From: Candidatus Micrarchaeota archaeon
Lineage (GTDB): Archaea; Micrarchaeota; Micrarchaeia; Anstonellales; J096
Length of the DNA: 64,000 nt
Direction: 5' to 3'
Assembly: GCA_015523325.1 (NCBI GenBank)
Contig: WAKO01000015.1
Coordinates: 9,812 to 73,811 of the forward strand
Shown here: piece by piece, positions 15,593-48,145 of the stretch
Position numbering within the stretch: position 1 is the first letter of the stretch
How the letters are laid out: every line of letters starts with the position of its first letter
The notes under the pieces: model-generated
Told to the model about the DNA's origin: nothing
The model's input: the letters and a program-made list of their open reading frames with translations, nothing else
Databases searched by the model: none
Position numbers and translations under genes: made by a program

Positions 15593-16010
15593 AGAAGAAA
15601 GGATAAAGTTTAAGGAAAAAATGCTAGAAGAGTTTGAGAGGTTTATTGATTTTTATTTAAAAGAAGAGGAATATTGTCCTTGGGTAAATGAAATAGGGAT
15701 AGAAGAGCTATTAGATAGGATAAAAGGAGAGTTGGAGGAAGTTAAAGAGGAAATTGAAAAGGGAGAGAAAGAGAAGCTTATTGAAGAAGTAGGGGATGTA
15801 TTTAGAGGTTCATTTTTGCTTTTAGTTAAATCCTCCTATAACATAGGGGAAAATCCACACATAGTAATAAAAAGAGTCTTAGAAAAAATAAAGAGGAGAA
15901 AACCTTGGGTTATTGAAGAGAGAAAAGTTTCCCTCAAAGAATCATTGGAGATATGGCAACAAAAAAAGGAGGAGGAAAAAAATTTTAGGGGAAATTCTAA
16001 GAAAGAATGA
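15576..16010 (+). CDS. MazG-like nucleoside triphosphate pyrophosphohydrolase
   Basis: 144 aa. LLDRIKGELEEVKEEIEKGEKEKLIEEVGDVF matches the MazG ExxE...ExxD helix pair. It overlaps the upstream gene by 17 nt. Confidence 0.55.
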   Translation: MNGKNEEERIKFKEKMLEEFERFIDFYLKEEEYCPWVNEIGIEELLDRIKGELEEVKEEIEKGEKEKLIEEVGDVFRGSFLLLVKSSYNIGENPHIVIKRVLEKIKRRKPWVIEERKVSLKESLEIWQQKKEEEKNFRGNSKKE

Positions 16011-17013: not shown

Positions 17014-17066
17014 AGACTTTTAAGATCAACAAATTTTTAAAAATCTCCATACTCTCTAAGAAGATT

Positions 17067-21390: not shown

Positions 21391-21440
21391 TGGAGGCTTT
21401 AGTTTGGGCTAGGAGTTGGAAAGGCCCCTTGCACTTAAAC
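21391..21440 (-). promoter_or_regulatory. 3' trailer half of the 16S pre-rRNA processing stem
   Basis: In RNA sense, GUUUAAGUGCAAGGGGCCUUUCCAACUCCUAGCCCAAACUAAAGCCUCCA pairs with the leader at 22937-23013. Confidence 0.75.
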
Positions 21441-22936
<1,496 letters not shown>

Positions 22937-30713: not shown

Positions 30714-31775
30714 TTAAGACCTTCTTTTTACTATAACTTCTTCATCAACCGTAATGAGTTTAACTCTCCTTCTATCAAAATAAATAGGAACACTTAAAAT
30801 TAGCTTTTTTGTTGAAAGGTTAAGCTCAAATTTATAAAGACTAAAGTTTTTATCAACTAAAGAAAAATCCAAAGTATAAGATCCTTTTTTTATTGAGTTT
30901 AAAAGCTCTTCATACTCCTCATTTGAGAGAACAAATCTAGCCTCTCTAAAAACTTTTCCTGTTGTACTTCTTGGGTCAAAATCTACATTAAAGATTACTT
31001 TTGAGTGTCCTAAGGAGGGAGGGATTAATTCAATAACTACTCTTGTAGGGTTTGCAAGTAAGTGAAAGTTGGAGTTTAGCTTTTCAGAATCTATGTAAAT
31101 TGCTTTATCCAAATACTCTTTTATTGAAGATAGCTCATTTTTTGCATTCTCATCAACAATCCCTAAAATCTCTTCATTATCTAAGACATTTTCTCTCAAA
31201 AATCTTATTGTGGTTAAATAGGAAAGCTTTTTTGTTAAATCAAGAACATCTTTAGTTAAAAAGTAAGGAACCTCAACTTTTACCTCAGGAACTAAAGGAT
31301 TTGTAAAATGAATAGTTGCATAGATTCCATAAACTTCTAGCTCTTTTTTTAGCTTATTCTCATAATCTTTCATGAGCTTCTCTAAATAAGAAGGATTATT
31401 AATTTGGAGAGATTGAAAAGTTAGGAAAGGTAACCAACTAACTACAACTGCCTTTGAAGAGCCTTGAAGAATAGAGAGATATTTTATAGGGAATCTTCTC
31501 TCAAAAAAAGGATAGTTGTTTTTTGATAAGAATAAAGCATATTCTTCAAAAGCTTTTTTTGCTGGAACATAGTGCTCTTTTCTATAAAAATTGTAGTTTA
31601 TTTTGCTCATAGAAGGAGTAGAGTTTAAAGGAGCTTGTGAATAAGAAGGGGAGAAGGCTAAAGATGATGCTAGTAATGCTGGGGCTAGTTTGAAAGCTAA
31701 AAATTTTTTGAACCTCTTTTTAGCTTTTGAAACCTCTCTTTTTCCAAAATCCATATATTTAAACTTTTTCCACAT
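30714..31775 (-). CDS. Secreted hypothetical protein, last gene of the minus-strand surface locus
   Basis: 353 aa with signal-like N-terminus KKFLAFKLAPALLASSLAFSPSYSQAP. It starts 93 nt downstream of the 1549-aa gene. Confidence 0.6.
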   Translation of the reverse strand: MWKKFKYMDFGKREVSKAKKRFKKFLAFKLAPALLASSLAFSPSYSQAPLNSTPSMSKINYNFYRKEHYVPAKKAFEEYALFLSKNNYPFFERRFPIKYLSILQGSSKAVVVSWLPFLTFQSLQINNPSYLEKLMKDYENKLKKELEVYGIYATIHFTNPLVPEVKVEVPYFLTKDVLDLTKKLSYLTTIRFLRENVLDNEEILGIVDENAKNELSSIKEYLDKAIYIDSEKLNSNFHLLANPTRVVIELIPPSLGHSKVIFNVDFDPRSTTGKVFREARFVLSNEEYEELLNSIKKGSYTLDFSLVDKNFSLYKFELNLSTKKLILSVPIYFDRRRVKLITVDEEVIVKRRS

Positions 31776-31868: not shown

Positions 31869-34800
31869 TTAACTTGCTTTATTCTCTTTATTTTCCCCAC
31901 TTATGCTTGAACCATTATTTGAATCATTTGATCTAAGAGAAGCTACACCTATTCCCAAGGAAGAAACAACCCCATACAAGTCTGGCCCAAATAAATAACC
32001 TCTCCTAAATCCTGGTTTTTGAACTTCTTTAGGAGAATAAACAGGAGAAAGAACACTATAGAGAGTTGTTCTTTCTAATGGAGAGGATTCCTTCCTAAAT
32101 ATGTTTATAGCTTCTAAAGTATCTCCAAAATAGAGCATATCCATAGCAAATAATGAGTAGGAAAGCAAATAATTAGAAGGCTTATCATGTTCTAAAACAA
32201 TAGCCTCTCCTCCAAGCACTTCTTTAGGAAGTTCATTTTTATAGAGCATTCTATTGTACTCATAAAAAGAATTAAGCCTTTTATTTTGCTCTCCTTGCTC
32301 TCTTTGTCCCTCTGCTCCCCAATTAAAGTAGCTTCTAACCCCTCTGATAGATGTTTCTAAAGTTGATTCCCTAAATGGTTGGAGAGGGGAAATTGAGGCT
32401 TGTGAAGGATAGGTTTCTATTTTCTCAACTTCTCTATAAAGACCTTTCCCAAATAAAAGTTCTTCAAAACCAAACCTTCCTTCTTCTGTTTTTAAATCAT
32501 ATCTAGAATCTATTATTTTTATTGCTCCTTTTTCTCCAAAGATCTCTCTTTGGGCTTTTTCAAACTCTGTCTTTGGAACAATTTTATTCAATTCCTCAAA
32601 AAACTTGTCTCTATTAAAGGTATTTCCCTCTGTTGAAGCTTGGATCGCTTGAGAGAATCTCTTTCTAGCCTTTAAAGAAAGCTCCTCATCATTTCCATGT
32701 AGAACTCTATTTAATGCAACCAAATAAGTTAAGGATTTCCTTGCAAAATCAGGGTCTCTCATTTGTTCTTCAAACTTAGAGTAATCTATGTTTTTATCCC
32801 TCCTAACTTTCTTGAACTCAGTCTTTGCTACTTCTTTAATAAATCGTGGTTGGTTACCATATAAGAAGGATAGTCCTCTCAAAACTTGGGAAGCCAAATA
32901 ACCTTTAATAGGGCTTCTCTCATCTTCAAGAATAACCTCAACTCTTTCTATAGGAGTTGTTATTTTTTCTCTCCTTAAGAGCAAAGCTGGTTTTTCTGGA
33001 CTTGGAGGAGAAGGAGTAGTTAGGGAAATCTTTAGAGTAGGTTGAGGAATAGGAGTAGATTGTTGTTCTTGGGTTTCTAACGAAGCCCTAAGCTTTGAAA
33101 GAACTTTCAAAGATCTTAAATTAATAAAGGAAGTTGCAGCTTGCTCAAGGTTTGCTTCTTTTATATTATAGAGAATTCCAGCCTGAAGAGAAGAGAGGTT
33201 TTCATCAGCATAATCAACATTAAACTTATCCAAAACATCTCTAGAGAATTCCCATATACTTAGTTGTCCTTTATAAAAGTCGTTTATCCTTCTCTCCATT
33301 CCATTTATTAAATTAAATATTTGCTTTGACTCTTTATTCAGAGAAACTTGAGAAGGTTTTTCCTTATCTTTTTCTTCCTTTTCCTCTTTAGCAGTGCCAG
33401 AAGTCCCAACAGCCTCAACACCCTTATCCTTAGAAGGCTTAGGAGGTTTTACTATAGCTGCTTGTTTTAATGACGTTATTAAAGCTCTTCTTTGATTTTC
33501 ATCCAAATCATAAAATGAAAGTAGGTTATTAATTGTTTCTTCATCTCTAAAAATAGCTCTAAGTTTAGCTTTTGCCTCCTCTCTACTTGATTTTTCAAGG
33601 ATATTTGCTACAACAAAAGCTAAAGAAAAGATTTGGGCTTCATTAACGGAAAGGGGTTTTCCTCTCTTTTGTGCTTCTTTAAAGTACTCATAAACATCAC
33701 CATAGTTTCCTAAGGTGGAATCTAATCCAAAGGATTTTCTCTCGTTTTCAACAATTTCTTTATAGAATTCTCTAGCCTTTTCTCTCCTAACTATAAACTC
33801 TCTAACTTGGTCCAACCTCTCAATGTTTCCAGTTTTTCCTGCAATATGAAGGTGTAAACCAAATAAAGAAATTTGGCTAGCTAAAAACGCCTTTTCTTCT
33901 CCATTACTAGAAAAGAATTTACTTATCATTGTCCTCAAATTATTTTCCTCATCAATAACAAACTCTCCCCCCAGCAAAGTATAGAGCATAGAAGAGAAAA
34001 ATCCATGTAAAGTGTGATAATTGGAATTAACTCCTAGAACATCTCTTATCGCTTGACTTCCTCCAAGGAACGCATAAGCCTCTAAAACTGCAAGGTTATA
34101 GGAAATCTTTTCTAGTTCATTCGGAGATCTTACATTAAGGTTTAAACTACCATTCCATGCATTCATATCCACCAAATTCTTTTCAGCTTTTTTAGATTCA
34201 CTAGCTAAAATACTTAAAGCTGTAGAAGTGGAATAGTGTTCATGCAACATTCTTAGCTCTCCTAAAGAGAAATCATTAGCCTTTACTCCAAAAATTTTGT
34301 TTAAAGAATAAAGAAGGAGGGAATTGAGAACTTTTCCATACAAATTTATTATGTTTGCTAGGGCTTTTGCTTTTGTTGCTATTAGTTTTGAGCTCTCAGC
34401 TATTAATTGTTCCTTTTCTTTTTTGGTTTTAGTTTCACTTCCTTCAAATGCCTCCTCCTTTTTTAGAGCTTCTTTTGGAATTATAGAGTGAATCGCTTTG
34501 GAGAGGATGTTTGAAACTGCTGAGCTCGCAACGGTTAGGAGAGGAACAGATAATTCCATTGCAACTTGGGTTGTGGTTAGAGGGTGGGTTATGGATCTCT
34601 TTGCTGCTTTTGCCGCTTGTTTTACTGTTTTTAGAGAAGGTTTAACAGTAGGTTTTAGCACTCCTTTCTTACTTCCTAACCCATACATTAGCGCTCCTGT
34701 GAGGGTTGTAGCAACCCTAACCGCTGTGGTTTGGAGAACTCTTAATCCAGAAGTAACTAAACTTCTCTTAAGAGGTGAAACCTTGTTCCCTCCTAATAAT

Positions 34801-36518
34801 TTTTTTGTTATTTTTTGGCTTGCTAAAGTAGTTACCTTTTCTGTTCCTTTTTTAGCTAAAGACATTGCTGTTGTGGCGGCTTTTGCTGTTTTTGTATCAA
34901 CATACCTTTTTGCAAGCCCTCCTGAATAATTAACTCTCAAAGCTCTGGCTGTTCCTACTCTACTCATATCAAAGAAGAAGAAGGGATTGTTTCCACTCTC
35001 ATACATTGAAACAAATAATAGGCCAAACAAAAGAACTATGGGAAGGCAAATAGCTATATTGTAGAGTAAATTATCAACCCTCTCTGGAGAGATGGGGGTG
35101 AAAACAGAATAGCGGGAAATACTAATTATGGTTGGGTAATCTACTTGCTCTTCAGTACTGTAAGGGAGAGTGTAATTTATGTAGGCATCTCTTGAAATAC
35201 ATTGAGGTTGTGGGAGAGGTTCAATTATAGCTTCCCCACAAGTAGGGATATCAAAATAGTTTTCATAATTATCTATTCCAAACTCATCAATACATTTTTT
35301 TAAAGCACACGCATTCCCAAGCTTTGAAAAGCAAACAACAGCATTTGTTCTTGTATAGTATTTTTCCTCTATACCATTATCAACTAACAACTTACTCACA
35401 TTTATTGTTGCTCTTCCAAGCTCTTTTGTGTTTACCCTGCAAGCATATTTTTTATCAACAAAGTCTTTGTTAACCTTTTGCTTATATTCAACTATGAAGA
35501 GGAGGGAAGCATTTCTTAAAGGATAAAAACCAGGGTTTTCATAATTAAAAACTAGAGGAGTTGCATTAACAATTATGTTGTTCTTCTCATTTTTTTCAAT
35601 AACAGAAACCCTTCCATAAGAAAGGTCTTTCAGGTCTTGGTATCTAAATTCTCCAAATAAATAAGGGGAGCTAACAGTACAGGTTGGAATTGTTGATGGT
35701 TGATAAGGGTTTATGCATGGTCCTTTTCCAGGAGAGGTTATGCAGTTAAGGGAAAATTGAGAAGATTGTCTTACTCCAGTAGAAGAGTCTTCAATATCAA
35801 TTGCTTGACCGAAATTATATTCATAGGAAAAGTTTGCAATAAAATCTGAAATAATAGCATAGCTTGAAAGTAAAGGAGTAGCAATTTCAGAGTTACAAAC
35901 AAATTCAAAACCCTCCTCCAAATATTCATAACCTGGAGGTTTGCTTATAGGAGAGCTGCTTCCTAAAACATTAAAATAGGAAGAAGTTATTGTGTTTAGG
36001 TCAAAGCCTCCATTATTTTTTTCAAATTCACATCCAACCTTAATTGTATCTCCTGTGTTCATATCAATTAAAGTGAAATTCAAAAATACATCTGTTATAT
36101 CAGAATCTAGGGAAAAAGTATTGTCTACTATACCATTACCATCTTGTTGTAAACCAAGCATCAAAGGGCCAACTCCTCCACCCCCTCCATCGCCTCCTCC
36201 ATTTCCTCCATCGCCTCCATTACCTCCATTACCTCCTCCATTTCCTTGCCCTTGATTAATAACAGCATTTATAGAGTAAACCTTGCCCGTTATTACAAGC
36301 TCATCATTTAAACATGAATTCGGATATTGAAAAGAAACATCACAAATACAACCTGCTATCGCATTAACATCAGGAGCACCAGGATCATTTTGAGGAGAGC
36401 TTATAAATATAGGGGCTTCTATACAATTAGTAGGACAAGTTATAACAATGGAATGTTGGGAGGAAAAAGAGAAAGTTATTAGGAAAAGAAAAATCAAAAA
36501 GGGAAAAGCTCTCATCAA
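31869..36518 (-). CDS. Giant bitopic envelope protein: signal peptide, ~460 aa Cys-containing ectodomain with a Gly/Asn tract, one TM, and a ~1040 aa basic predicted cytoplasmic region
   Basis: 1549 aa. N-terminus MMRAFPFLIFLFLITFSFSS, a G/N/D tract at residues 90-117, a TM LLYNIAICLPIVLLFGLLFVSMY at residues ~483-505 (nt 35004-35072), followed by K/R/T/A-rich sequence consistent with the positive-inside rule. Confidence 0.8.
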   Translation of the reverse strand: MMRAFPFLIFLFLITFSFSSQHSIVITCPTNCIEAPIFISSPQNDPGAPDVNAIAGCICDVSFQYPNSCLNDELVITGKVYSINAVINQGQGNGGGNGGNGGDGGNGGGDGGGGGVGPLMLGLQQDGNGIVDNTFSLDSDITDVFLNFTLIDMNTGDTIKVGCEFEKNNGGFDLNTITSSYFNVLGSSSPISKPPGYEYLEEGFEFVCNSEIATPLLSSYAIISDFIANFSYEYNFGQAIDIEDSSTGVRQSSQFSLNCITSPGKGPCINPYQPSTIPTCTVSSPYLFGEFRYQDLKDLSYGRVSVIEKNEKNNIIVNATPLVFNYENPGFYPLRNASLLFIVEYKQKVNKDFVDKKYACRVNTKELGRATINVSKLLVDNGIEEKYYTRTNAVVCFSKLGNACALKKCIDEFGIDNYENYFDIPTCGEAIIEPLPQPQCISRDAYINYTLPYSTEEQVDYPTIISISRYSVFTPISPERVDNLLYNIAICLPIVLLFGLLFVSMYESGNNPFFFFDMSRVGTARALRVNYSGGLAKRYVDTKTAKAATTAMSLAKKGTEKVTTLASQKITKKLLGGNKVSPLKRSLVTSGLRVLQTTAVRVATTLTGALMYGLGSKKGVLKPTVKPSLKTVKQAAKAAKRSITHPLTTTQVAMELSVPLLTVASSAVSNILSKAIHSIIPKEALKKEEAFEGSETKTKKEKEQLIAESSKLIATKAKALANIINLYGKVLNSLLLYSLNKIFGVKANDFSLGELRMLHEHYSTSTALSILASESKKAEKNLVDMNAWNGSLNLNVRSPNELEKISYNLAVLEAYAFLGGSQAIRDVLGVNSNYHTLHGFFSSMLYTLLGGEFVIDEENNLRTMISKFFSSNGEEKAFLASQISLFGLHLHIAGKTGNIERLDQVREFIVRREKAREFYKEIVENERKSFGLDSTLGNYGDVYEYFKEAQKRGKPLSVNEAQIFSLAFVVANILEKSSREEAKAKLRAIFRDEETINNLLSFYDLDENQRRALITSLKQAAIVKPPKPSKDKGVEAVGTSGTAKEEKEEKDKEKPSQVSLNKESKQIFNLINGMERRINDFYKGQLSIWEFSRDVLDKFNVDYADENLSSLQAGILYNIKEANLEQAATSFINLRSLKVLSKLRASLETQEQQSTPIPQPTLKISLTTPSPPSPEKPALLLRREKITTPIERVEVILEDERSPIKGYLASQVLRGLSFLYGNQPRFIKEVAKTEFKKVRRDKNIDYSKFEEQMRDPDFARKSLTYLVALNRVLHGNDEELSLKARKRFSQAIQASTEGNTFNRDKFFEELNKIVPKTEFEKAQREIFGEKGAIKIIDSRYDLKTEEGRFGFEELLFGKGLYREVEKIETYPSQASISPLQPFRESTLETSIRGVRSYFNWGAEGQREQGEQNKRLNSFYEYNRMLYKNELPKEVLGGEAIVLEHDKPSNYLLSYSLFAMDMLYFGDTLEAINIFRKESSPLERTTLYSVLSPVYSPKEVQKPGFRRGYLFGPDLYGVVSSLGIGVASLRSNDSNNGSSISGENKENKAS
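36168..36251 (-). repeat. Imperfect short tandem repeats encoding GQGNGGGNGGNGGDGGNGGGDGGGGG
   Basis: The plus strand shows reiterated cctccat/tacctcc units (36181-36240). It is low-complexity coding sequence. Confidence 0.8.
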
Positions 36519-36572: not shown

Positions 36573-39500
36573 TTATTCAACTGGATAGCAGGTTGCATAC
36601 TTTATTCCTTGAGTAAATATTTCAGAGAGCTCTTGAGGGGATAAAGCTGTTGGATAGCAGTAGTTTTCCTCATTAAACCCTGGTGGAGGAATGTTAAAGG
36701 TTATAGGAGCTACATATTGAGAGGCAATAGCTACTGTTTTTGAGGTTTCATTATCACACAAAGAAAATCCAGTTTGGGAAAGAGAGAGGCCTATGAAATC
36801 TGATAGTTCTTCACTATACTCAGATATTTCAAACTCAGCTATTTCATCCTTCTTTATCTCACACCTTATTTTGCTTACACATTGTTTTTTAGGAATGCAA
36901 TCTGGAGTTTCACAATCATCAGCAACATCATAAGGCTGAGAAGACTTTAAGTTAACAAATCCTCCTAAACTCATAAGGTTCCTGCTAAATTGACAAATTC
37001 CTTCTGGAGAAGGGAGGAGGTAAAACCTCTTTCCAGGAATATTATTTTTGTTTAAAACATCCTCAAATTGAATTCCAATATTTCCATTGCTTATTAATGC
37101 GGATTTTCTATAATTTAAGTAAGAGAAGAAGAGCTCTAATTCACTCTCATTAGCATAAACAATATCATTTATGTAGAAGATTGTAGGAAGCCCAAGAGTA
37201 GAAAGGCTTAGCCTCGATATCTCTACAAGCTTGTCAACTTCACTCCTAGCTCTTAGCTCATCAAGCCCAATAATATTAAATCCTACTCTAAAAATAACTA
37301 CATCATATTTATCCTCTCTTTGGTCTTTAAATGGAGATAACTTGCTTAATCCCCTAGCATTATCCTCAAAGATTTCTTGTAAATCAGAAGTTTCCAAAGA
37401 GGAAAGAGGTTTATCAAAAGCAATTGAAATTCCTACCAAGCAATCTTTACAGCTAGCTTTTACAGCTTTTATTCTAGAGATAGTGTTTTGATTATTTACT
37501 GAATAACCTCTTTCAGAATAAAGGGCTTTATTATCAGAATCAAGGATTAATTTATTAGTTACTATTATTGCTGTTCCAGTATCTGCTTTTGAAAAGAAGG
37601 AGAAACCTCTTTCATTGTAAGGATCTCTTATAGCTAATTGCACATCTTGGAGAAGCTTTAGGAGAGGGAGGGAAAGAGAAAGTTCTTCAACACTAGGCTT
37701 AAAGAAAGGATCATATCCTTTATCAAGGTTTGTGTATTTAACCTCATAAAGGCTAGGATCATCAACAATCAAAACAGGAAGAATTCCTCTCCCCATATAG
37801 CTTATAAGCCTATCTTTAAGATAATAGTTGGAAGGATAGAAGTTTGGAGGGTTAAAAGATTCATTTGAATAAAACGTTACTCTAGGAGCAACCACAAACT
37901 CCTCTGATTTTGGGGCTTTTGTAAATACTCCATAAAAAGAAAAATTGGCTTCATCAGGAAGGTCTTGTAAGTCAAACCTATACCTTCCTTCTTCATAATC
38001 TTCCTCACTTCCTCCACTTACTTTTTCATAATTAATTGAAAACTTCTCTAAAGGAGGATCAGCATCAACTAAAGAAAGGAAATATAAATAAGCTTTAGAA
38101 GGGAGAGTATAGGAATAAAGGAATGTATTTGCTATTGGGTCAAGAAACTCATACTCCCAAAGCCTCTCCACTCTTATATACCTAGTCTCAACAGCTCCAG
38201 CATACCTCTTATCACAACCTATTCCATATGCTAAACATCCTTCCTTTCCCAAATATTTTCTATGAAGTTCCCAATCTACAGGGTTCCATTCCCAATAATC
38301 AATAAATCTAGAAGGAGGCTCCAATTTATCACAATCCTTATCTATCATGCAAGTGTATAGAACATCATACCATAAACTACGCAAACTACTTTCTTCAGGG
38401 TAATTTAAAATTATGGTTTCAATGAAAGGAGGAGTTGGAGAGAGTATTCTTCCAACCTCCTTTATTAACTCAGTCCCATCTATATTCTTTGAGAGGGCAA
38501 TTAGGTTTAGTGTTCCTCTAAAAGAGCTCTTTTCATCAAAAAAGGAAGTGAAATTAATAACATCTGGGATGTATTGGGAGGTTTTTGAAGAAATTTCTAT
38601 TGAGCTCTCTATTTCCTCAAAAGCAAGGTTTAGAGGGGAAGAGCCTTCACAATATCCAAACTCATTAACCCTCAAACCTGTTAGAGTGTCATTAGCAATA
38701 CATTTTCCAAACTTTCCATCAGAGATTTCATCTTTAAACACAAAAGCAGAAACAGCCATATCTCCAAAGCAAGTTCCTTCATACTCATCTCCAACCCAGC
38801 TTCCTAAGCAAAAGTATTTAGGAGGCAACTCAGCGCATAACTCTGGATTTATTGAATAAGGAGAATTACTAAGATTAAGCATTAAAGAATCTCCTTGATA
38901 AAGAGAGTTAGGGTATTTTGTTATATAAGGATTAAAGCAAAACGCATACTCTATTTCTTGGTTTTCATTGCAATTATCATAAACTGGAAAATCATTTTGG
39001 GATGTTCCTGAATAAGAGAGATAGTTTAAGTAGGTTGAATCTGTTTCATAATTTGAAGGAGAGGTTGAGGAAGGCCAAGCCTTTGGAGCTAAAAATAAGT
39101 AGTCCCTCAAATCTGATAGTCTGGCTAGAGATAGATCTTGGCCCTTTGCCCCATAAGATATTACAGGGATCCCACTCTCTATAACAGCACATCTCTTTCC
39201 ATCTTGAAAACCAAGATCTGTTTGCTTTTCAAAACCTATAGGAAGCATAGGAGAAACATCACTTGCTAAATCAAAGAATAAAAGAGAGTAGTTTACATCA
39301 ACCCAAGGGCCAACCTCTCCATAAGAGGCTAGGAAAAGTCTTTCCTTCTCATATTGCTCTACCAATTGCTCAAAGAACTCTGGATTTCCAGTAAAGTAGT
39401 TCATTATATACATTTCTTGAGTGTTCTCTTTTACAAAGGTTTTTGAAGGAGCAGGAATAGCTTCTCTTTCCAAAATAACTCCCCTAAGGAACGGTCCTCT

Positions 39501-41849
39501 TCCATCATCAAAGTATTTAACTCCTTTAAAGCTTCCTATGTTTGAAGGAAATAATGGAGAGTTAAAATCAGTTATTCTTCCATTATCATCCACTATTGAG
39601 ATTGGACCATTTTCTCCTAACTCCTCTGGGAAAAGCCAAGCGTCTTCCCTTTCCTTAATATTATAACCTCCTCCAGATGTATTAACCAAAGTGAATATAT
39701 CGTCTCCTCTTAAGTTAGTATAACACCTATAATCGCTTGGAGATAAATCTTCATTAAGTATTGGATAAGATTTATCAAACAGATTGGTTCCTACAAATAT
39801 AACTTCAGTTTGTGGACCTACAGATGCAAAAGCTATAGAAAATGTAGAGGAGTAATATGAATCAGAAATACTAGGTATTAATGAATTTCCTGTTTGATCT
39901 TTACACCCTCCAAATATATTTAAGTTTCCGCACACGTCTTCCAAAAACCCTCCAGGATCTGCATCAAGAGTTAGATTTACATCATTGTTTGGATATCTTT
40001 GGTCTATGTTTCTACACACATCTTCCAAATTAATATCCTTTATATAATTTCTTCCATCAAATATTATTCCAACATATTTATCAGATATTTCTTTTCTTAT
40101 ATCTTGAGCGCTACAGTAGTAAGGATCTGTACTATTAATGTTTTGGTTCTCTCTTGCAGTTATATTATAGTCAACATAAACAAAAATACTTCCTCCCAAA
40201 TGAGCAAGATAAATAAACCTATCGCTTCCTTCTCCATAATAATAAGGTTTCATTACAAGAACTTTTGGATGTTTTTCAACCAAATCTTTTTCTGAGAGAT
40301 AGGGTTTGTTTGGGGAGGATTGGCTAATTGGAGTTCCATCAAATAAATTATAGGAGTCAGGATATAAATAGTTGCAATCACCTCCTGTACAGCCACAAGG
40401 AACTTCTACAAGCTCTCCATTTTCAATTGCTGTGCAAGAGCTCCTATAATAATCTTTTTTATTGCAAAAAGAGGAAAGGCAATCTTGCCCACTCCTACAT
40501 TCATATTCAGCCCCAATCCTTTCCCTTCCCTCCTTATCCATACTTCCAAATTTAAACTGTTCATAATAAGTAGGAACTCTCCTTAATAATTCTGGATAGG
40601 AGTTGAGAGGGGCTCCTTCTAAAATTGTTATTGTTGAGTTCTCATAAATGCCTTGGGTTATGTTTCTAATTTTTCCAAGAGAACTTGATTTAGCTTTAGA
40701 AAAAGTAGGAAGGTAGTACTCATCTCCCTTTCTTTCAGAAGAAAATTCAAAACTCCCTAAATCTTGAGAAGAGCTAACCAAGCTTTGAAGAATTTCTTTA
40801 TCAAAAGATAAGCCAAATAAATAAGGAGTTACATAAACCTCATATCCCTTTTCATTAAACAACTCTCCATTATTTAAGAAAGGTATTTGCTTACTTTTGT
40901 ATTCTTGAGAATAGCAAAAAGAAAGAGAAGAGAAAGGTTTTTTCTCATTAGGAGAGAAGAGAAAATCTTGCTTTGCATTTAACATACATTCCGCAAAAGT
41001 AGTGAAGTTATTTATCCTCTCAGAACTTGAAGGAGAATAACCATTCAACACCCAATAATCTCCTTTCTTAACACAAAGTTGCTGATTATTTATCATTTCC
41101 TCAGTTAAATAAGTATAATAATCATCCACAAACCCAGAAGGGTTTAAGGCTAACATGTAGGAGGAGAAAGGAACTAAAGTTCTTGCTATCTCAAAGTCCT
41201 CAAAACTCCTTCCAGCCCCTATCCTATAGGTTACGAATAAAGCTCTTTGTGACTTAAGCTTTTCTAATGAGGAAGGAGTTAGTTCTCTAAACTCACACCT
41301 CGCATAAAGGAAATTAGATTGAGTTGAAACTAAATATTGGAAGTTATAATTAGGCAATCTATAGGTTAAGGAAACTCCTTCTCCAAAAACTCTTCTATTC
41401 TCTTCAGCATCAGCTATGGAAAAGGATTCTTTTTGAGGAGAATAATACATAGAAGGATAACATACTAGGTAAGTGCAACCAAATTCACACTTCTCTCCTG
41501 CCAAAAAGGTTCCAGGACAAGGAGAAACTTCTAAAGGAGAGGGAAACTCAACTATCTCATTATTAACTTTATCCCTTAAAGCACATATCTTACAAAATCC
41601 TGTTTCTTGAAATTCACTACAATCATACCAGTTTCCTCCACACCCTCCACAATCAATTCCAGAAGGACATTGTTTTTGGGAAAGTCCAACATAATCATCT
41701 GAAAATACTTGAGGAAGTGCATTGTTTTCCAAAACATCCTCCATGTTTGTTATACAAAGCTCTCCAACCTCTCTTAAACATCCTTGCAAAAATAATAGAG
41801 AGAGGAAAAGGATTATAAGGAAAGGCTTAAGGCCAAGTTTTATTCTCAT
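36573..41849 (-). CDS. Giant Cys-rich secreted or lipobox-like surface protein
   Basis: 1758 aa. N-terminus MRIKLGLKPFLIILFLSLLFLQGC, many Cys clusters (CPSGIDCGGCGGNWYDC; CRSGQDCLSSFC; CGCTGGDC), and no C-terminal TM. Confidence 0.8.
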   Translation of the reverse strand: MRIKLGLKPFLIILFLSLLFLQGCLREVGELCITNMEDVLENNALPQVFSDDYVGLSQKQCPSGIDCGGCGGNWYDCSEFQETGFCKICALRDKVNNEIVEFPSPLEVSPCPGTFLAGEKCEFGCTYLVCYPSMYYSPQKESFSIADAEENRRVFGEGVSLTYRLPNYNFQYLVSTQSNFLYARCEFRELTPSSLEKLKSQRALFVTYRIGAGRSFEDFEIARTLVPFSSYMLALNPSGFVDDYYTYLTEEMINNQQLCVKKGDYWVLNGYSPSSSERINNFTTFAECMLNAKQDFLFSPNEKKPFSSLSFCYSQEYKSKQIPFLNNGELFNEKGYEVYVTPYLFGLSFDKEILQSLVSSSQDLGSFEFSSERKGDEYYLPTFSKAKSSSLGKIRNITQGIYENSTITILEGAPLNSYPELLRRVPTYYEQFKFGSMDKEGRERIGAEYECRSGQDCLSSFCNKKDYYRSSCTAIENGELVEVPCGCTGGDCNYLYPDSYNLFDGTPISQSSPNKPYLSEKDLVEKHPKVLVMKPYYYGEGSDRFIYLAHLGGSIFVYVDYNITARENQNINSTDPYYCSAQDIRKEISDKYVGIIFDGRNYIKDINLEDVCRNIDQRYPNNDVNLTLDADPGGFLEDVCGNLNIFGGCKDQTGNSLIPSISDSYYSSTFSIAFASVGPQTEVIFVGTNLFDKSYPILNEDLSPSDYRCYTNLRGDDIFTLVNTSGGGYNIKEREDAWLFPEELGENGPISIVDDNGRITDFNSPLFPSNIGSFKGVKYFDDGRGPFLRGVILEREAIPAPSKTFVKENTQEMYIMNYFTGNPEFFEQLVEQYEKERLFLASYGEVGPWVDVNYSLLFFDLASDVSPMLPIGFEKQTDLGFQDGKRCAVIESGIPVISYGAKGQDLSLARLSDLRDYLFLAPKAWPSSTSPSNYETDSTYLNYLSYSGTSQNDFPVYDNCNENQEIEYAFCFNPYITKYPNSLYQGDSLMLNLSNSPYSINPELCAELPPKYFCLGSWVGDEYEGTCFGDMAVSAFVFKDEISDGKFGKCIANDTLTGLRVNEFGYCEGSSPLNLAFEEIESSIEISSKTSQYIPDVINFTSFFDEKSSFRGTLNLIALSKNIDGTELIKEVGRILSPTPPFIETIILNYPEESSLRSLWYDVLYTCMIDKDCDKLEPPSRFIDYWEWNPVDWELHRKYLGKEGCLAYGIGCDKRYAGAVETRYIRVERLWEYEFLDPIANTFLYSYTLPSKAYLYFLSLVDADPPLEKFSINYEKVSGGSEEDYEEGRYRFDLQDLPDEANFSFYGVFTKAPKSEEFVVAPRVTFYSNESFNPPNFYPSNYYLKDRLISYMGRGILPVLIVDDPSLYEVKYTNLDKGYDPFFKPSVEELSLSLPLLKLLQDVQLAIRDPYNERGFSFFSKADTGTAIIVTNKLILDSDNKALYSERGYSVNNQNTISRIKAVKASCKDCLVGISIAFDKPLSSLETSDLQEIFEDNARGLSKLSPFKDQREDKYDVVIFRVGFNIIGLDELRARSEVDKLVEISRLSLSTLGLPTIFYINDIVYANESELELFFSYLNYRKSALISNGNIGIQFEDVLNKNNIPGKRFYLLPSPEGICQFSRNLMSLGGFVNLKSSQPYDVADDCETPDCIPKKQCVSKIRCEIKKDEIAEFEISEYSEELSDFIGLSLSQTGFSLCDNETSKTVAIASQYVAPITFNIPPPGFNEENYCYPTALSPQELSEIFTQGIKYATCYPVE

Positions 41850-41858
41850 GATCTCCTC

Positions 41859-42896
41859 CTAAATAAGCCTGTTTAATAAAGACCCTATGTCTGCTCCTGT
41901 ATAGATTCCTTTGCTTAAAATAAGAGAGAAGTTGTTTATAAATATTGCAGTCAACGAGAGCGAAACAATTTGAGAAATTAAGAACTCAGTAGAAAGAATT
42001 AATCCTAAATCTTCCTCTATAGATTGTGGTTCTCCTAACGTTGGGTTGAATCCTCTAACCAATTGTTGTTCTGGGAGGATTAGGGCACTAGTGGCTACTA
42101 ACTTACAAAATGCTTGGTCAGCTTCAACAAAAAACTCTTCCTTATCTTCTAATATTAATTTTGGAACTCCAAAAAAGAACATTGCAGTTGTTATTGGATA
42201 AACATAATAAAACCCTATGGAAAGAGCTATAAGGAAGCTTCCTGCTGCTCTAAAGAAAGGAATTACTCTTAAAATTAAACCAAAGATCAGGAAATAGCCC
42301 ATGCTATCCTTTATATATCCTAAAGCTGAGTAAGCAACTGATAATCCAACAGCTATTGAGGTATCAATACTAGCCCTAATTATTAATTCATTTCCTCTCT
42401 TTATTGAAGAGAAAGAAGGATCTCCAAGGATTGGGTAGGAAAAGATAGAGAAGGTGGTACCTCCTTCTTTCAAATAATTAGAGGCTAACCTAGCATTTTT
42501 CATAGCTAATAAAAAGGCAGAGTTCATATTGTCAAATACAAGTGGTCTCAAATAGGACTCAATAAACCCTATTGTTCCTTCTGTTGGAGTGAAGATGAAA
42601 GGATAGAAGATTGTAGCAAGCCATTCAATTATTTTAAAGAGGAGAAAAAGTCCTGCCCAGAGAAGGGCAACTGCAATACTATCCAATATCTCAGCCTTTG
42701 CTTTAACAACTCCTTGTTCATCACTAAATATTTTAGCAAACATATACCTCAAAACTGCTACTGCAAAAAATATTATTACTCCAATCAAGAATAGCTTTTC
42801 AAAGGATGCTATTTCATTAGGAGAGAGAAAAGCTGTTATTGTTGGCTCTTGGGAGAGATAAGGAAGATGGGAATTTAAAAGAACTAACTCAAGCAT
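41859..42896 (-). CDS. Polytopic membrane protein, paralog 6 of a six-member tandem family
   Basis: 345 aa. Carries the signature RVIPFFRAAGSFLIALSIGFYYVYP (nt 42195-42269), a TM1-charged loop-TM2 N-terminus, and a C-terminal TGAD tail. Confidence 0.8.
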   Translation of the reverse strand: MLELVLLNSHLPYLSQEPTITAFLSPNEIASFEKLFLIGVIIFFAVAVLRYMFAKIFSDEQGVVKAKAEILDSIAVALLWAGLFLLFKIIEWLATIFYPFIFTPTEGTIGFIESYLRPLVFDNMNSAFLLAMKNARLASNYLKEGGTTFSIFSYPILGDPSFSSIKRGNELIIRASIDTSIAVGLSVAYSALGYIKDSMGYFLIFGLILRVIPFFRAAGSFLIALSIGFYYVYPITTAMFFFGVPKLILEDKEEFFVEADQAFCKLVATSALILPEQQLVRGFNPTLGEPQSIEEDLGLILSTEFLISQIVSLSLTAIFINNFSLILSKGIYTGADIGSLLNRLI

Positions 42897-42939
42897 ATTA
42901 CCCCTTTCTCAGAGCAAATATAAAATTTTAATGGAAAAA

Positions 42940-44031
42940 TTACCAAGTAATTATTCCGCTCATTCTTATAAACATCTCCATAAGATTATTGCTTTCCCCT
43001 AAAAGCCTTAGTAAAGATCTAACAACAACAGCCATTATTATCAAATTTATAGAGCCAAACAAAACTACCCTAAATATTAATCCCGCATAGGCCTCAATTA
43101 TATTTGAAACATTTATAACAACTCCTGATTTATCTTCAATAATAACATTTGTTCCACTTCCCTTAATCTTCCATTCATCAGTTAAAGTTCCCAAAGAGAG
43201 TTGAAGAAAAGATTGGCTTATGGAAGGAATTCTATCATTAGTTAGCTTAGAAGCTGAGGAGAAATCGGTTGCAATCAAATCATTTGAATTCAAATTTGGT
43301 AAGCCAAGAACATACGCTTCTAAAACTATTAAAAGAGGGTAAAAAACATAAAAAGAGAGGATTAAGGCAAATAGCACATTAGCAAAGGTTCTAGTGAATG
43401 GAATTAATCTCATAACTATCATTATTGAGAGAACAGCTACAATGTTTTGAGAGAGAAAGAACTTTATAAGAACTAGCTGGGAAAATGCAAAAAGAAAAAC
43501 AGTTGTGAAAAGCAAAGAGGAGATTTGGAATAAAAAGCGAGTAGCCCACTCTAAATCAGAAAAAGGATAAATAAAGGTTTGGGGAGCTCCTAGCAAACAA
43601 ATTAAAAAACTATTTGAAGCACATTTTGAGATGCTTATTCTTGTTAAATAAAGCAAGTGCATTAAAGCCCAATTATTTGCTGCTGAGAGTTCTAAGGAGG
43701 AAGCAGTGAGGGAAAGTGAATAATCATAAGCAGCCTCATAAAAACAATCTCCTTGGAGTATTCCTTGCTTTCCTGTAATGCTCTCCATAAAATCATTCAG
43801 CAAAGATGAGGAGGTGTCTTTGAAAAAAGAAACTATTATTATTAGAAAAACTATTATGAAACCATCTGCAATAACATTCCATATTTCTTCTCTTGCCCAA
43901 AAGGATACTTTTTCATCCCCTATTATGCGTGAGGCTATGAAAGCTATTGCTATTATTCCGAATGAAACAAGAACACTTAAAGAGAGTAAAGAAACATCAA
44001 TTGAAAATGCTGTGGAACATAAATCTGCCAT
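42940..44031 (-). CDS. Polytopic membrane protein, paralog 5
   Basis: 363 aa. Signature RLIPFTRTFANVLFALILSFYVFYP (nt 43336-43410) and C-terminal RLLGESNN. Confidence 0.8.
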   Translation of the reverse strand: MADLCSTAFSIDVSLLSLSVLVSFGIIAIAFIASRIIGDEKVSFWAREEIWNVIADGFIIVFLIIIVSFFKDTSSSLLNDFMESITGKQGILQGDCFYEAAYDYSLSLTASSLELSAANNWALMHLLYLTRISISKCASNSFLICLLGAPQTFIYPFSDLEWATRFLFQISSLLFTTVFLFAFSQLVLIKFFLSQNIVAVLSIMIVMRLIPFTRTFANVLFALILSFYVFYPLLIVLEAYVLGLPNLNSNDLIATDFSSASKLTNDRIPSISQSFLQLSLGTLTDEWKIKGSGTNVIIEDKSGVVINVSNIIEAYAGLIFRVVLFGSINLIIMAVVVRSLLRLLGESNNLMEMFIRMSGIITW

Positions 44032-44038
44032 CTTATCC

Positions 44039-45148
44039 TCATCCTCCTGAAATGTAGTAGGTTAACCTTCCTATTATGAATGGGCTTATCTCAGCTCCAA
44101 GTATCTTCGCTATTCCTCCAACAATAGAAACAAAAGTTAGTAATGTTATTCCCTGCGCCAATATTACAAAAAACACAAAGGAAGAAATAACACTACCTGA
44201 AGAGGTTATTGCATTCTTAACCTTAGATAAGTAAGAAGTTAGTTTTGAGTTAGGGCAAGGAAAGACTAAAGCTTCTACTCCTGAAAGCTCAACTTTTATA
44301 GAGTTATAGAAGGAATTTATTTGGTTTTGTATTGCTGCTTGGCCAGTAAAGTAAGTGTTAACAACAGCATTTGAAACTAAGATGGAGAAGGGCATTATTG
44401 AATACAAACCTATTGCTAATGCTAAGAAAAATGCTCCTCCACCTCTAGTTATTGGATTAGCTCTAAGTATTATTCCAATTGCAAGCAAAACAGTTATTGC
44501 TTCTTGGGAAGAGAGTTGTTCTATTAAAAACCTCTGAAACTCTAAAGCCATATAAGCAATTCCCAAAAAATAAGAAAATCCAGACATTGGTCTTATCACC
44601 GCATTATAAGCAGTGCATGGACTTAGAGAGGCTCCAGCATCTGCAGCAGGGTTTGATAAAAAACCTCTAATTCCACTACTTTCAGGATCACTACTTCTTG
44701 GAAATTCTATGGAAGTGGAGGAAAGGAAAGAAACCTGAGAAGTTAGAGAGGCCATAGCACTAGCATCTCTTAAAAAGGAAGAATGAGCATTTAGAATATC
44801 GCTCAAAACTCCTGCATTATAATCAAGAACTAAAAGGGAAGAGCTAATCAATGCATTTCTAGAAGCATTTGCCCCTGTAGTGTAGGAGTATATTGTTGCT
44901 CCTCCTATCTTCTTATTTATATAATCTGCCAACAAACCAAATAAATTATTGGCTACATCAGAAAATAGGAAAGACGTTAAAGCAACAAACAAAGCTAGGA
45001 AAAGAACATATTCAAAGAACTCGTTTCTTGAAATTATTATTAGGGAGGAGTTTTGGAGAGCCTTGCCTATCATAAACATTAAACTATAGAAGAGGACTGG
45101 AAAAACGATGATAGGGGCTAAAGGGGAGAGCTCAACCATATAACTCAA
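44039..45148 (-). CDS. Polytopic membrane protein, paralog 4
   Basis: 369 aa. Signature RANPITRGGGAFFLALAIGLYSIMP (nt 44390-44464), preceded by QRFLIEQLSSQEAI, with C-terminal KILGAEIS. Confidence 0.8.
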   Translation of the reverse strand: MSYMVELSPLAPIIVFPVLFYSLMFMIGKALQNSSLIIISRNEFFEYVLFLALFVALTSFLFSDVANNLFGLLADYINKKIGGATIYSYTTGANASRNALISSSLLVLDYNAGVLSDILNAHSSFLRDASAMASLTSQVSFLSSTSIEFPRSSDPESSGIRGFLSNPAADAGASLSPCTAYNAVIRPMSGFSYFLGIAYMALEFQRFLIEQLSSQEAITVLLAIGIILRANPITRGGGAFFLALAIGLYSIMPFSILVSNAVVNTYFTGQAAIQNQINSFYNSIKVELSGVEALVFPCPNSKLTSYLSKVKNAITSSGSVISSFVFFVILAQGITLLTFVSIVGGIAKILGAEISPFIIGRLTYYISGG

Positions 45149-45224
45149 CCTACATTCTTTAACAATCTTTTCTATTTCTTTTCTATTTTTTCAAATTTAT
45201 TTTTTTCCCTTAATCCCAAGATTC

Positions 45225-47207
45225 TTACCTAAAGAGCTTGTTTATTGCTGGAAGGAACATATCTCCCTCCATAAATGAAGAGAATCCCGCAACACTATAA
45301 ATTGTTGCAATTAGAGCTAGTAAAGGAATTCCATAAGTAGCAAATATTACCTTTCCTAAATCCAATAGCTGAGATTGTTCATTTGCAAACAAAACAGTTA
45401 CAAGAGGGGCCCTATTAGCACAAAGACTACAATCCACATAAGTTGGATAATATCTTAGGTTGGTTGGGTAGTTTTCACATCCAGAACAAGTTCCATAAGC
45501 GCTTGGCAAAGGTTCCACAACAACCTCAAAATAATTTTTAAGATTTTGTCTATTAATGAGGAGGGTTGACCAATCCTCATAATTAAATATTCCTTTTGAT
45601 TGCTCATACCATCCATTTCCTCCAAAACAATTGTATTCAGCAAAGCAAACGTCCTCTGTATAATTATCAAATTTTAAAATGTAGTTGCTGCCTGTGTAAT
45701 AAGCATCAATACTCCTACATTGAGTAGGGCAAAAAACATTAAAGCTATCTTTTGTTCCAGGAACTATATTTGGAAGGCTCCTACAATCAGTTGGGCACTC
45801 AATCTCATACTTTTGAATGTCATCAGAAGGAGAAGAGAGCTCAAATATCTCATTATAAAGTTGCTCATTCTCATATGCATACATCTTCTTAAAACATTGA
45901 GGATAATTATCATACAAAACTTTGCAAGCTCTCTCTGCATCTCTACATTGAATTGAATCATCTGGGTATGGGAGGGTTCTACACTCCTCAAAACAATAAA
46001 GCCCTGTTGTGTCTTGAGGAGTAGCGTTAGGGGAAAGAGGGGTTAAGGTTAATCTACTCCCTCTCCTTATCTCGTAAAGTTGCTCAAAACCTGCTTCTTC
46101 AGAATATCCTTTCAATGTTGCTAAGGAAACAACATCATTAGCATAATCTAAAGCACCTAGCTCTCTTGCATAATACTCACAAGAGTAGAATGTTGTAGAA
46201 GTTTGAGGATCAACAAATGTTTCTGTTTCCCCTCTAATAAATTCAGGAGCAAATTGGTAGAGGGCTATTTCATTACTAAAAACTTGCTTTGGATTTGTTT
46301 TATCATAAAAAGCTATTACATTGTTAAAGCAAACTGAAGGGCAAACTTCATAAGAAGATTCTTGCAATTGAGAGATTGGTTGGAAGAAAGGAAAGTAGAA
46401 GAGAAACATAAATGTGGGGTAAAATAGCATTATCCCTAAACCAACAGCAATTAGAGTAGAACCTATTCTCCTACTAAATATAAAAATTCTTAATAGAATT
46501 CCTACAGCCAATATAGCCGGGCCAAATAAGGAGGTGGAAAGCTTAAGAGTAAAGAAGGATACTACAACTCCAATATAAGCAAACTCAAAGAAATCTCTTA
46601 GTATTAACTTTGGATAAGAAGAAGCTCCTTTATCATACTCATATCCAAAACTAGAATAAGCTGCAATTAGGTTTTCTATTCCAATATGAAAACCCAAAGT
46701 TACTTGGGATTTGGCTATTTCCTTGTTTATCTCAATAACTTTATTTTCCATTGGTTCTAAATAGGAGTTCTTTAAGTAGTTAAACACAAAGTTATCCAAA
46801 CAAAATCCATAACTGTTTTGAGGATCACAAGCAATAGCATAATCTTTTTCAAGGCTAACTAAGCCAACCAAAAAATCAACAAATGCTAGAGCAATTATTA
46901 GGAACATCACTATAGCTGTATTTGCTAGGAGTTCCTTTACTTCTATTCTGAAATAATACTTAAGGATTTGTAAATTAAAGAGATCTCCAAGCATATAAAG
47001 CAAAGCTGTTATAAAAACAGCAATAGCTAAAGAAAGGATTGCTAAAGCCTGCCAATTCTTCAAAATATCAAACAATATGCCAGAAGGAGCATTTTGGAGG
47101 TCTTGAAACCTTTGTTCTAGAGAAGTGGAAAAAGTTATAGCTAAAATAAAGGCAAGGAAGAAAATAAAAAGAAAATATCTGGATCTCTCTTCTTTCATAC
47201 TATTCAC
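45225..47207 (-). CDS. Polytopic membrane protein, paralog 3, with a ~330 aa Cys-rich extracytoplasmic insertion
   Basis: 660 aa. Signature RIFIFSRRIGSTLIAVGLGIMLFYP (nt 46416-46490). A Cys-rich domain follows (CFEECRTLPYPDDSIQCRDAERAC; CPTDCRS; CPTQCRS; CSGCENY), then a final TM. Confidence 0.8.
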   Translation of the reverse strand: MNSMKEERSRYFLFIFFLAFILAITFSTSLEQRFQDLQNAPSGILFDILKNWQALAILSLAIAVFITALLYMLGDLFNLQILKYYFRIEVKELLANTAIVMFLIIALAFVDFLVGLVSLEKDYAIACDPQNSYGFCLDNFVFNYLKNSYLEPMENKVIEINKEIAKSQVTLGFHIGIENLIAAYSSFGYEYDKGASSYPKLILRDFFEFAYIGVVVSFFTLKLSTSLFGPAILAVGILLRIFIFSRRIGSTLIAVGLGIMLFYPTFMFLFYFPFFQPISQLQESSYEVCPSVCFNNVIAFYDKTNPKQVFSNEIALYQFAPEFIRGETETFVDPQTSTTFYSCEYYARELGALDYANDVVSLATLKGYSEEAGFEQLYEIRRGSRLTLTPLSPNATPQDTTGLYCFEECRTLPYPDDSIQCRDAERACKVLYDNYPQCFKKMYAYENEQLYNEIFELSSPSDDIQKYEIECPTDCRSLPNIVPGTKDSFNVFCPTQCRSIDAYYTGSNYILKFDNYTEDVCFAEYNCFGGNGWYEQSKGIFNYEDWSTLLINRQNLKNYFEVVVEPLPSAYGTCSGCENYPTNLRYYPTYVDCSLCANRAPLVTVLFANEQSQLLDLGKVIFATYGIPLLALIATIYSVAGFSSFMEGDMFLPAINKLFR

Positions 47208-48138: not shown

Positions 48139-48145
48139 GCTATCC

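Follow-up and report, generated by a model that had tools for sequence, protein, structure and literature searches.

Gene Locus and Domain Layout

The window analyzed here is a 64,000-nucleotide (nt) stretch of contig WAKO01000015.1 (positions 9,812 to 73,811) from a Candidatus Micrarchaeota archaeon, assembly GCA_015523325.1, which comprises 701 kb in 24 contigs and has a low GC content (about 34%). Our subject is a complete open reading frame (ORF) on the reverse strand of this window that encodes a protein of 1549 amino acids (aa). Most genomes of the archaeon's order encode a pair of paralogous "giant bitopic" proteins, of which this is one. Its gene is the eighth of nine co-directional unannotated genes with housekeeping genes on both flanks. 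In the order of transcription these are six genes for paralogous polytopic membrane proteins (the six-paralog array), the gene for a 1758-aa secreted protein, the 1549-aa gene and a 353-aa gene (Table 1).

The public database calls the 1549-aa gene from an ATG one codon past the TTG start listed in Table 1, giving a product of 1548 aa. A second NCBI assembly has the identical product on a contig of 105,994 bp, beside the same neighbors. An earlier reading of the sequence alone (the original prediction) had described a signal peptide, an ectodomain of ~460 aa containing a Gly/Asn/Asp tract, a single transmembrane (TM) helix and, beyond it, a strongly basic segment, and each of these elements was recovered in our analysis. 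Residues 1–20 are hydrophobic and form a signal sequence which we infer is cleaved; the 460-aa side that follows is acidic and disulfide-rich, with a mass of 50.3 kDa and an isoelectric point (pI) of 4.4. The position of the Gly/Asn/Asp tract required correction from residues 90–117 to residues 88–115. Imperfect tandem repeats of 9 and 21 nt at window positions 36173–36246 code for this tract and are a likely site of length variation. The TM helix had been placed at about residues 483–505 (nt 35004–35072), which is right within a few residues, the best 19-residue window being 488–506. The ~1040 residues of the C-terminal part have a mass of 117.2 kDa and a pI of 9.4, and they do begin with a strongly basic stretch (net charge of +24 across residues 506–700, pI 10.5). 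The cysteines of the protein are distributed very unevenly, with 16 in residues 21–482, one in the TM helix and none in residues 506–1549.

Table 1. Features of the 1549-aa protein and its co-directional neighbors, with positions numbered along the window.
Feature	Residues	Window positions	Strand	Basis or remark
Complete ORF		31869–36518	-	1549 aa, TTG start; 1548 aa from the ATG at 36515
Signal sequence (MMRAFPFLIFLFLITFSFSS)	1–20	36459–36518	-	Hydropathy peak 1.8–1.9; Hessa sum +1.7
Distal ectodomain, acidic, Cys-rich, lineage-unique	21–290	35649–36458	-	Cys positions; no homolog aligning
Gly/Asn/Asp tract, inside the distal ectodomain	88–115	36174–36257	-	
Membrane-proximal ecto-module, conserved	~293–482	35073–35642	-	BLASTP; alignments A1, A2 and A5; A2 hidden Markov model (HMM)
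Single TM helix (core IAICLPIVLLFGLLFVSMY)	483–505	35004–35072	-	Hydropathy and Hessa scale
Juxtamembrane signature (ESGNNPFFFFDMSRVG)	506–521	34956–35003	-	hhalign; invariant columns
Basic T/A/K/S-rich segment, aromatic-poor, pI ~10.5	522–700	34419–34955	-	Charge, hydrophobic moment and composition windows
Cys-free, predicted all-alpha cytoplasmic region	701–1500	32019–34418	-	Low-confidence AlphaFold2 model and composition
K/E/P-rich linker	1026–1060	33339–33443	-	Composition
P/T/S-rich linker	1151–1200	32919–33068	-	Composition
G/S/N-rich C-terminal tail with weak hydrophobic patch (YLFGPDLYGVVSSLGIGVASL)	1501–1549	31872–32018	-	Patch below TM grade
Six paralogous polytopic membrane-protein genes (345, 363, 369, 660, 312, 393 aa)		41859–49327	-	Upstream of the 1549-aa gene
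1758-aa secreted protein		36573–41849	-	Upstream neighbor; 50 Cys, no known domains
353-aa gene, signal-like N-terminus		30714–31775	-	Downstream neighbor; last of the co-directional block

Membrane Topology

The 1549-aa protein is predicted, with good support, to be a type-I single-pass membrane protein whose N-terminal side is outside and whose C-terminal side is inside the cell. This orientation follows from four independent lines of evidence: composition densities, the positive-inside rule, extracellular domains on the N side of the TM helix and zinc ribbons at the C-terminus. The arrangement originally proposed, a large ectodomain, one TM helix and a cytoplasmic domain of ~1040 aa, is thus borne out from several directions.

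To obtain composition references we divided ORFs of the same genome into those without a TM helix, which are mostly cytoplasmic, and those with a signal peptide only, which are secreted. Cys content is 0.67% in the former and 1.64% in the latter, and N-x-S/T sequons number 0.43 and 1.58 per 100 aa, respectively. For the 1549-aa protein the corresponding values are 3.3% and 1.24 on the N side, versus 0% and 0.48 on the C side. The same asymmetry was found in seven family members when pooled, in which Cys accounts for 106 of 2747 residues on the N side versus 14 of 9147 on the C side, and sequons number 66 and 45 on the two sides, respectively. Positively charged residues are distributed in the opposite sense: over 17 members, Lys and Arg make up 18 of the 340 residues in the 20 positions before the TM helix versus 84 of the 510 in the 30 positions after it, and the bias has the expected direction in all 17. 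Supporting the same orientation are the Pfam domains of extracellular type that lie on the N side of the TM helix in relatives (NosD, right-handed Beta_helix and Big_13 in P0005, and a beta-helix in P0017), along with the CxxC...CxxC zinc ribbon that forms the very end of three paralogs (P0006, P0008 and the second family member of the query's own genome, a 2182-aa protein described below).

Only one segment of the protein is of TM grade. Its best window has a sum of -1.44 on the Hessa scale (Hessa et al., 2005) and a Kyte-Doolittle peak of 2.56, and the remaining hydrophobic patches, at residues 650–676, 837–855, 955–975 and 1508–1528, all have Hessa sums of at least +5.7, far from TM grade. 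Each of the seven homologs examined likewise has exactly one TM-grade segment. Some family members have a weak hydrophobic patch rich in Gly and Ala 170–210 residues past the TM helix; this patch is below TM grade and is not conserved, and the Cys and sequon composition of these proteins does not change after it. A check for additional TM segments that would turn the C-terminal region to the outside, as suggested with the original prediction, found none.

A Family of Giant Bitopic Proteins

Sequence comparisons place the 1549-aa protein in an unannotated and undescribed family that is specific to the Micrarchaeota, and no known family fits it. A word-indexed search of 5.8 billion clusters with the whole protein returned the query alone. 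Six-frame searches of related genomes identified homologs in 26 of 41 relatives, with similarity that is confined to residues ~330–600 of the query and peaks at residues 486–525. Each homolog is a single open frame of about 770–2400 aa (the 3102-aa P0017 is longer), with the same plan throughout: a signal peptide, an ectodomain of 150–1650 aa, one TM helix and then 500–1950 Cys-poor residues.

Conservation in the family is limited to the membrane-proximal ecto-module, the TM helix (C-x-P...G) and the G-x-N-P-F-x-x-F motif that follows it. The ecto-module carries a T-x-x-x-G-x-A motif and two family-invariant cysteines, C396 and C409 of the query. The TM helix starts with C-x-P and has a central Gly; C491 is invariant in the family and P493, A503 and M505 are nearly so. 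In the juxtamembrane signature, G509 and P512 are invariant throughout the family, and the motif on the cytoplasmic face has the family-wide form G-x-[ND]-P-[FL]-x-x-[FL]-[DS].

We defined the family by alignments A2 and A5. The HMM of alignment A2 scores the query at 228 bits, BLASTP of the query against its ortholog in relative G004 gives E = 8e-15 across residues 293–521, and a ten-member family profile compared by hhalign matches the query at residues 482–519 only, with a probability of 92.8%. The query is like the other members in its conserved ecto-module, its C-x-P...G TM helix, its G-x-[ND]-P-[FL] motif and its overall architecture (signal peptide, ectodomain, one TM helix and a Cys- and sequon-poor C-terminal region of at least 500 aa), and also in its genomic linkage to the six-paralog array. 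It differs from them in its distal ectodomain (residues 21–290) and its entire cytoplasmic domain (residues 506–1549), both of which align with no other member.

A search with the A5 profile, which comprises 13 family members, added P0017 as the one new member. With a profile of the conserved module, the family was detected in 128 of 301 sampled genomes of Ca. Micrarchaeota, most of the positive genomes having exactly two matches. Nearly every genome of the query's own order was positive, as were several other families of the class, and almost all of the 128 genomes belong to that order. The public names of the members are all [quoted passage not shown] (examples by NCBI locus tag are N3G80_00725, QXN37_03020, QXT25_02095 and NTX79_05350), and full-text searches of the literature found no description of a giant bitopic family.

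The members fall into two paralog types. The "NPFF" type includes the query and its orthologs P0003, P0004, P0018 and P0019. In the "RNPLSLFD" type the cytoplasmic domain is better conserved and contains the motifs MRDPR and GYQTGQ; a zinc ribbon terminates two proteins of this type, P0006 and P0008. The query has neither the C-terminal ribbon nor the MRDPR/GYQTGQ block. The second member in the query's own genome (G000:C13:13810–20358, plus strand) has 2182 aa, with an ectodomain of ~150 aa, a TM helix (LMLLFGLLVASLYTRGTAFF), ~1950 R/E-rich helical residues after it, hydrophobic patches rich in Gly and Ala near the C-terminus and a terminal zinc ribbon. It matches the profile of the "RNPLSLFD" type in the ecto/TM module only. 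Its gene has housekeeping genes (SAM synthetase, ArgRS, GatD and Rad50) and an 812-aa helical ORF as neighbors.

P0017, a metagenome protein from JGI, has a beta-helix/NosD ectodomain of ~1650 aa, a TM helix (ICVPIALLGGFMLASLYYSGRNPF) and ~1400 residues after it, and it shows that the ectodomain is freely exchanged in this family. Three small genomes of the same taxonomic family (G003, G012 and G015; genus g4, 0.5–0.6 Mb) have several genes of the six-paralog kind, and at E ≤ 0.001 the bitopic module found no match in them; some of their six-paralog matches sit in ORFs of 880–900 aa, which may be fusions.

The Cytoplasmic Domain

An exhaustive phmmer search with the C-terminal 1044 aa against 1.84 billion representatives found only the query. 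Pfam, NCBIfam, PHROGs and PDB sequences yielded nothing above noise for the query and, for five homologs, no match beyond the ectodomains. Walker A, HExxH and CxxC motifs, as well as internal repeats, were absent from the cytoplasmic domain of the query. Comparisons by BLASTP and hhalign between the cytoplasmic domains of different genera revealed no similarity, the exceptions in the whole comparison being the within-genus pair P0003/P0004 and weak matches between P0006 and P0007. What is kept across genera, despite sequences that cannot be aligned, is a pattern of composition: Cys-free throughout, basic at first and then K/E-rich and helical.

The original prediction had recommended modeling this part and searching for structural homologs. 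An AlphaFold2 single-sequence model of residues 506–1549 has a mean predicted local distance difference test (pLDDT) score of 36.5 and is informative for secondary structure only; it suggests an all-alpha cytoplasmic part with helical blocks at residues 701–1025, 1061–1150 and 1201–1500. No family or PDB-sequence match was obtained. For the best-conserved block of the second paralog type, P0007 residues 1000–1800 (nine sequences), the model reached a pLDDT of 47.6, and Foldseek returned no match to it in the PDB at E ≤ 0.001.

The basic segment was also searched for amphipathic helices, as had been proposed, and several basic ones were seen: across residues 515–700 the mean hydrophobic moment lies above that of shuffled controls with z = 2.4, and the top window, residues 626–643, has a hydrophobic moment of 0.63 and a net charge of +6. 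These properties would fit binding of the segment to the inner leaflet or to a polyanion.

The Gene Neighborhood and the Six-Paralog Array

The array lies about 5.3 kb upstream of the 1549-aa gene. The eight neighbors of the query produced nothing above noise in Pfam, NCBIfam, PHROGs or PDB sequences; the sole match of the 353-aa gene was a weak, sub-threshold one to DUF7398. A 336-aa gene at the comparable position in G004 was considered as a homolog of the 353-aa gene and rejected, as the two are not homologous.

The association between bitopic genes and arrays recurs in several taxonomic families. Seven of 10 genomes have matches to the two on one contig and within ~15 kb of each other, at 10 loci in all, and both bitopic copies are linked to an array in G002, G025 and G037. 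G001 has a six-gene array that follows the size pattern of the one in the window (397-331-653-381-405-318 aa), divergent from a 1322-aa ortholog of the query. A giant ORF adjoins the bitopic homolog in G002, G004, G009 and G034, as the 1758-aa gene does in the window.

No ATPase of the VirB4/CedB/HerA type was found in or near the cluster in the query's own genome or in 10 relatives, all matches to AAA_10 or DUF87 lying elsewhere. In the query's genome these matches are on contigs C3 and C18, with a weak one in an unrelated 319-aa ORF at window positions 57847–58806.

A second six-gene polytopic array is present in the same genome about 6 kb past the right end of the window (G000:C15:79809–86900, plus strand; 404, 333, 432, 402, 432 and 319 aa). 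Three of its six genes have a BLASTP match to members of the window array. Its neighbors are genes for an Lhr-like helicase and Orc1/Cdc6, and there is no giant bitopic gene beside it.

In G031 (locus L014, contig C1) the bitopic homolog is followed directly downstream, at 14939–17146 on the plus strand, by the gene of a 735-aa protein in which Pfam detects an SLT lytic-transglycosylase domain (E = 2e-5). G006 has a 731-aa ORF without a Pfam match at the corresponding position (L015, 3422–5617). No SLT domain was detected in the query's own genome.

Two further features of the window are recorded here. One is another large surface protein, of 1115 aa (9158–12505, minus strand), with a signal peptide, ~3% Cys and a match to thrombospondin type 3 repeats (Pfam E = 3e-5, just under the cut-off). 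The other is a complete archaeal 16S rRNA gene (21440–22934, minus strand), which stands alone with no 23S or 5S gene adjoining it within the window.

Proposed Role and Alternative Explanations

The conservation of the TM helix, together with the recurrent synteny with the array, is best fitted by a protein that joins a membrane complex of several subunits through the packing of its TM module. The reading we favor, with a probability of about 55%, is that the 1549-aa protein belongs to an undescribed envelope complex, as a connector subunit anchored in the membrane. The conserved TM helix would be the docking element that locks the protein into this complex, which would be built by the six adjacent polytopic paralogs and the neighboring giant secreted Cys-rich protein. 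The variable ectodomain would contribute to a surface or host-facing structure, the basic amphipathic segment may lie on the inner leaflet or bind a polyanion, and the fast-evolving helical remainder could serve as a cytoplasmic scaffold or tether. The domains outside and inside the membrane would in that case both be tuned to the lineage. Since neither the cluster nor the genes beside it encode an NTPase, an envelope structure that is static or passive is more likely than a secretion motor.

The original prediction had suggested a trans-envelope connector that links the surface structure to cytoplasmic partners. The membrane-spanning part of this proposal is reasonable in view of the synteny with the array and the giant secreted protein and the conservation of the TM and juxtamembrane segments. 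The cytoplasmic partners are hypothetical; the domain that would bind them has no recognizable fold or family and, because of its rapid divergence between genera, is unlike a conserved docking domain.

Several observations weigh against a connector subunit. The bitopic and array genes are on different contigs in 3 of 10 genomes, and the giant 2182-aa paralog is not beside the second array of its own genome. In addition, the six-paralog family occurs in 13 of 20 genomes without a detected bitopic module, which leaves strict phyletic co-occurrence of the two without support. These findings imply that the partnership with the array is not obligate, or else that it is masked by divergence and by fragmented assemblies. 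The cytoplasmic domain has no detectable homolog even in orthologs of the same taxonomic family, which is odd for a domain that binds a conserved partner; its length ranges from ~500 to ~1,950 aa across the family, and both structure predictions are of low confidence. Much of this could also be explained by a stand-alone surface adhesin or envelope anchor, which ranks first among four alternatives and which we consider possible, if improbable. Its ectodomain would be the working part, its TM helix would be kept for insertion and stability alone, its tail would be a poorly constrained and partly disordered helical appendage not specifically tied to the array, and the synteny would reflect co-regulated envelope genes. 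The unalignable cytoplasmic regions with their roughly 4-fold length variation, the two low-complexity linkers, the lack of enzymatic motifs and repeats, the arrays that occur without a bitopic gene and the unlinked 2182-aa paralog would all be expected of such a protein. It is harder to see, however, why a reduced 0.7-Mb genome should devote 3.1 kb to the tail of the query and about 5.9 kb to that of its paralog, or why the reading frame of the tail should stay open and its composition be kept across genera. A simple anchor also sits poorly with the recurrence of array linkage in several taxonomic families and with the fact that the most conserved element is a TM helix with invariant Cys, Gly and Pro, which is typical of helix-helix packing in a complex.

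The next alternative in rank is entirely speculative and, in our opinion, quite unlikely. The C-terminal domain might be a cargo or effector-like module that is cut off close to the membrane or travels through a cytoplasmic bridge to the host cell, its divergence being the product of an arms race between host and symbiont. The extreme turnover of C-terminal sequence beside a conserved TM module is compatible with this, as is the lifestyle of the Micrarchaeota, which are obligate symbionts, with nanotubes that connect the cytoplasms seen by electron cryotomography (cryo-ET) in a cultured member (PMC11329633). Those nanotubes, however, were interpreted as host-derived (PMC11329633), no secretion ATPase is linked to the cluster, and the query has no recognizable protease site, toxin, enzyme or targeting motif. 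The last two alternatives are essentially excluded. In one, the C-terminal ~1000 residues would be extracellular by virtue of a second weak hydrophobic segment, about 150–200 residues past the TM helix, that crosses or re-enters the membrane. The Gly/Ala-rich patch of several homologs could be cited in its favor (for example, P0003 451–469 with a Hessa sum of +3.6 and P0005 1270–1288 with +3.8), but this patch is missing from P0006 and P0007, no window of the query past the TM helix scores below +5.7, Cys and sequon densities are at the cytoplasmic level over the entire C side, and the paralogs terminate in zinc ribbons. Least probable of all is that the long ORF is an artefact, an assembly fusion or frameshift that joined the genes of a secreted and a cytoplasmic protein. 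The short tandem repeats that encode the Gly/Asn/Asp tract are prone to slippage, but they are far from the TM junction. Neither a fusion nor a frameshift, for which a check had been advised, was found, and an artefact was ruled out because the identical 1548-aa product is present in an independent assembly and the same architecture occurs in more than 100 genomes, with the plan of ectodomain, TM helix and giant tail found in single open frames of 1000–2400 aa without internal stops in about 128.

Significance

The Micrarchaeota and other DPANN archaea need physical contact with a host, and it is not known which proteins make up their structures for contact and exchange. In the cultured Micrarchaeon ARM-1, cryo-ET has revealed a barrel-shaped docking platform of ~21 nm and unknown composition in the envelope of the symbiont where the host nanotubes connect (PMC11329633), and the anchoring of the Micrarchaeota S-layer has been marked as unknown (PMC8975820). 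The giant bitopic family is lineage-wide and unannotated and takes up about 1–2% of a 0.7-Mb genome. Being membrane-spanning, with about 50 kDa outside and 117 kDa inside, and linked to the array, it is a concrete and testable candidate for such contact or exchange machinery.

A more specific version of the connector reading, which we regard as doubtful, is that the TM/juxtamembrane helix lies at the core of a hetero-oligomeric ring of the six fixed-order paralogs, and that this ring and the giant secreted protein together make up an NTPase-free, envelope-spanning and Micrarchaeota-specific structure. Such a structure would be a candidate for the docking platform of ARM-1, with the 117-kDa basic domain as its inner-face scaffold. 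Should the protein be only a surface anchor with a floppy tail, its interest would be modest; should its tie to an envelope-spanning contact structure be confirmed, its interest would be high. The family is also a clean example of a single TM helix that forms the conserved core of a protein while the domains on both sides of it turn over.

Comparison with Known Systems

The SlaB-type stalk or anchor of the archaeal S-layer and the substrates of archaeosortase (PGF-CTERM proteins) resemble the query in having exported beta-rich domains and one TM helix near a conserved short motif. Their TM helix, however, stands at the very end of the chain with only a few basic residues behind it, in contrast to the 1040 residues that follow it in the query. 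The query was not assigned to the archaeosortase/PGF-CTERM class, as its TM helix is internal and it has no match to an NCBIfam CTERM model.

The gene cluster as a whole invites a comparison with type IV secretion systems. Those of the Rickettsiales have tandem VirB6 paralogs with giant extensions (PMC7648143, PMC2653234). The cluster is similar to these and to archaeal Ced-type systems in that tandem polytopic paralogs stand beside membrane-associated proteins of very large size and the genome is reduced and host-dependent, and the SLT-domain protein encoded next to the homolog in G031 is reminiscent of VirB1. The query differs in being single-pass rather than polytopic. At the level of sequence families, none of nine cluster proteins had a Pfam or NCBIfam match to VirB6/TrbL, VirB8, VirB3 or a pilin (E ≤ 0.01–0.05), and membership in either system finds no support, as no VirB4/CedB/HerA ATPase is linked to the cluster in the query's own genome or in 10 relatives.

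There is also a parallel in general plan with the bitopic hub proteins FimV and HubP of Gram-negative bacteria, in which an exported N-terminal domain and one TM helix are followed by a very large cytoplasmic scaffold region of low complexity or helical character. The likeness is an architectural analogy and is not based on homology. The query has no Pfam or NCBIfam match of any kind, LysM, TPR and the FimV C-terminal motif included, and was not placed among the FimV/HubP proteins. It differs from them, moreover, in its basic cytoplasmic part (pI 9.4) and in belonging to an archaeon. The 1549-aa protein is a new and unannotated variant of the general bitopic hub/anchor kind.

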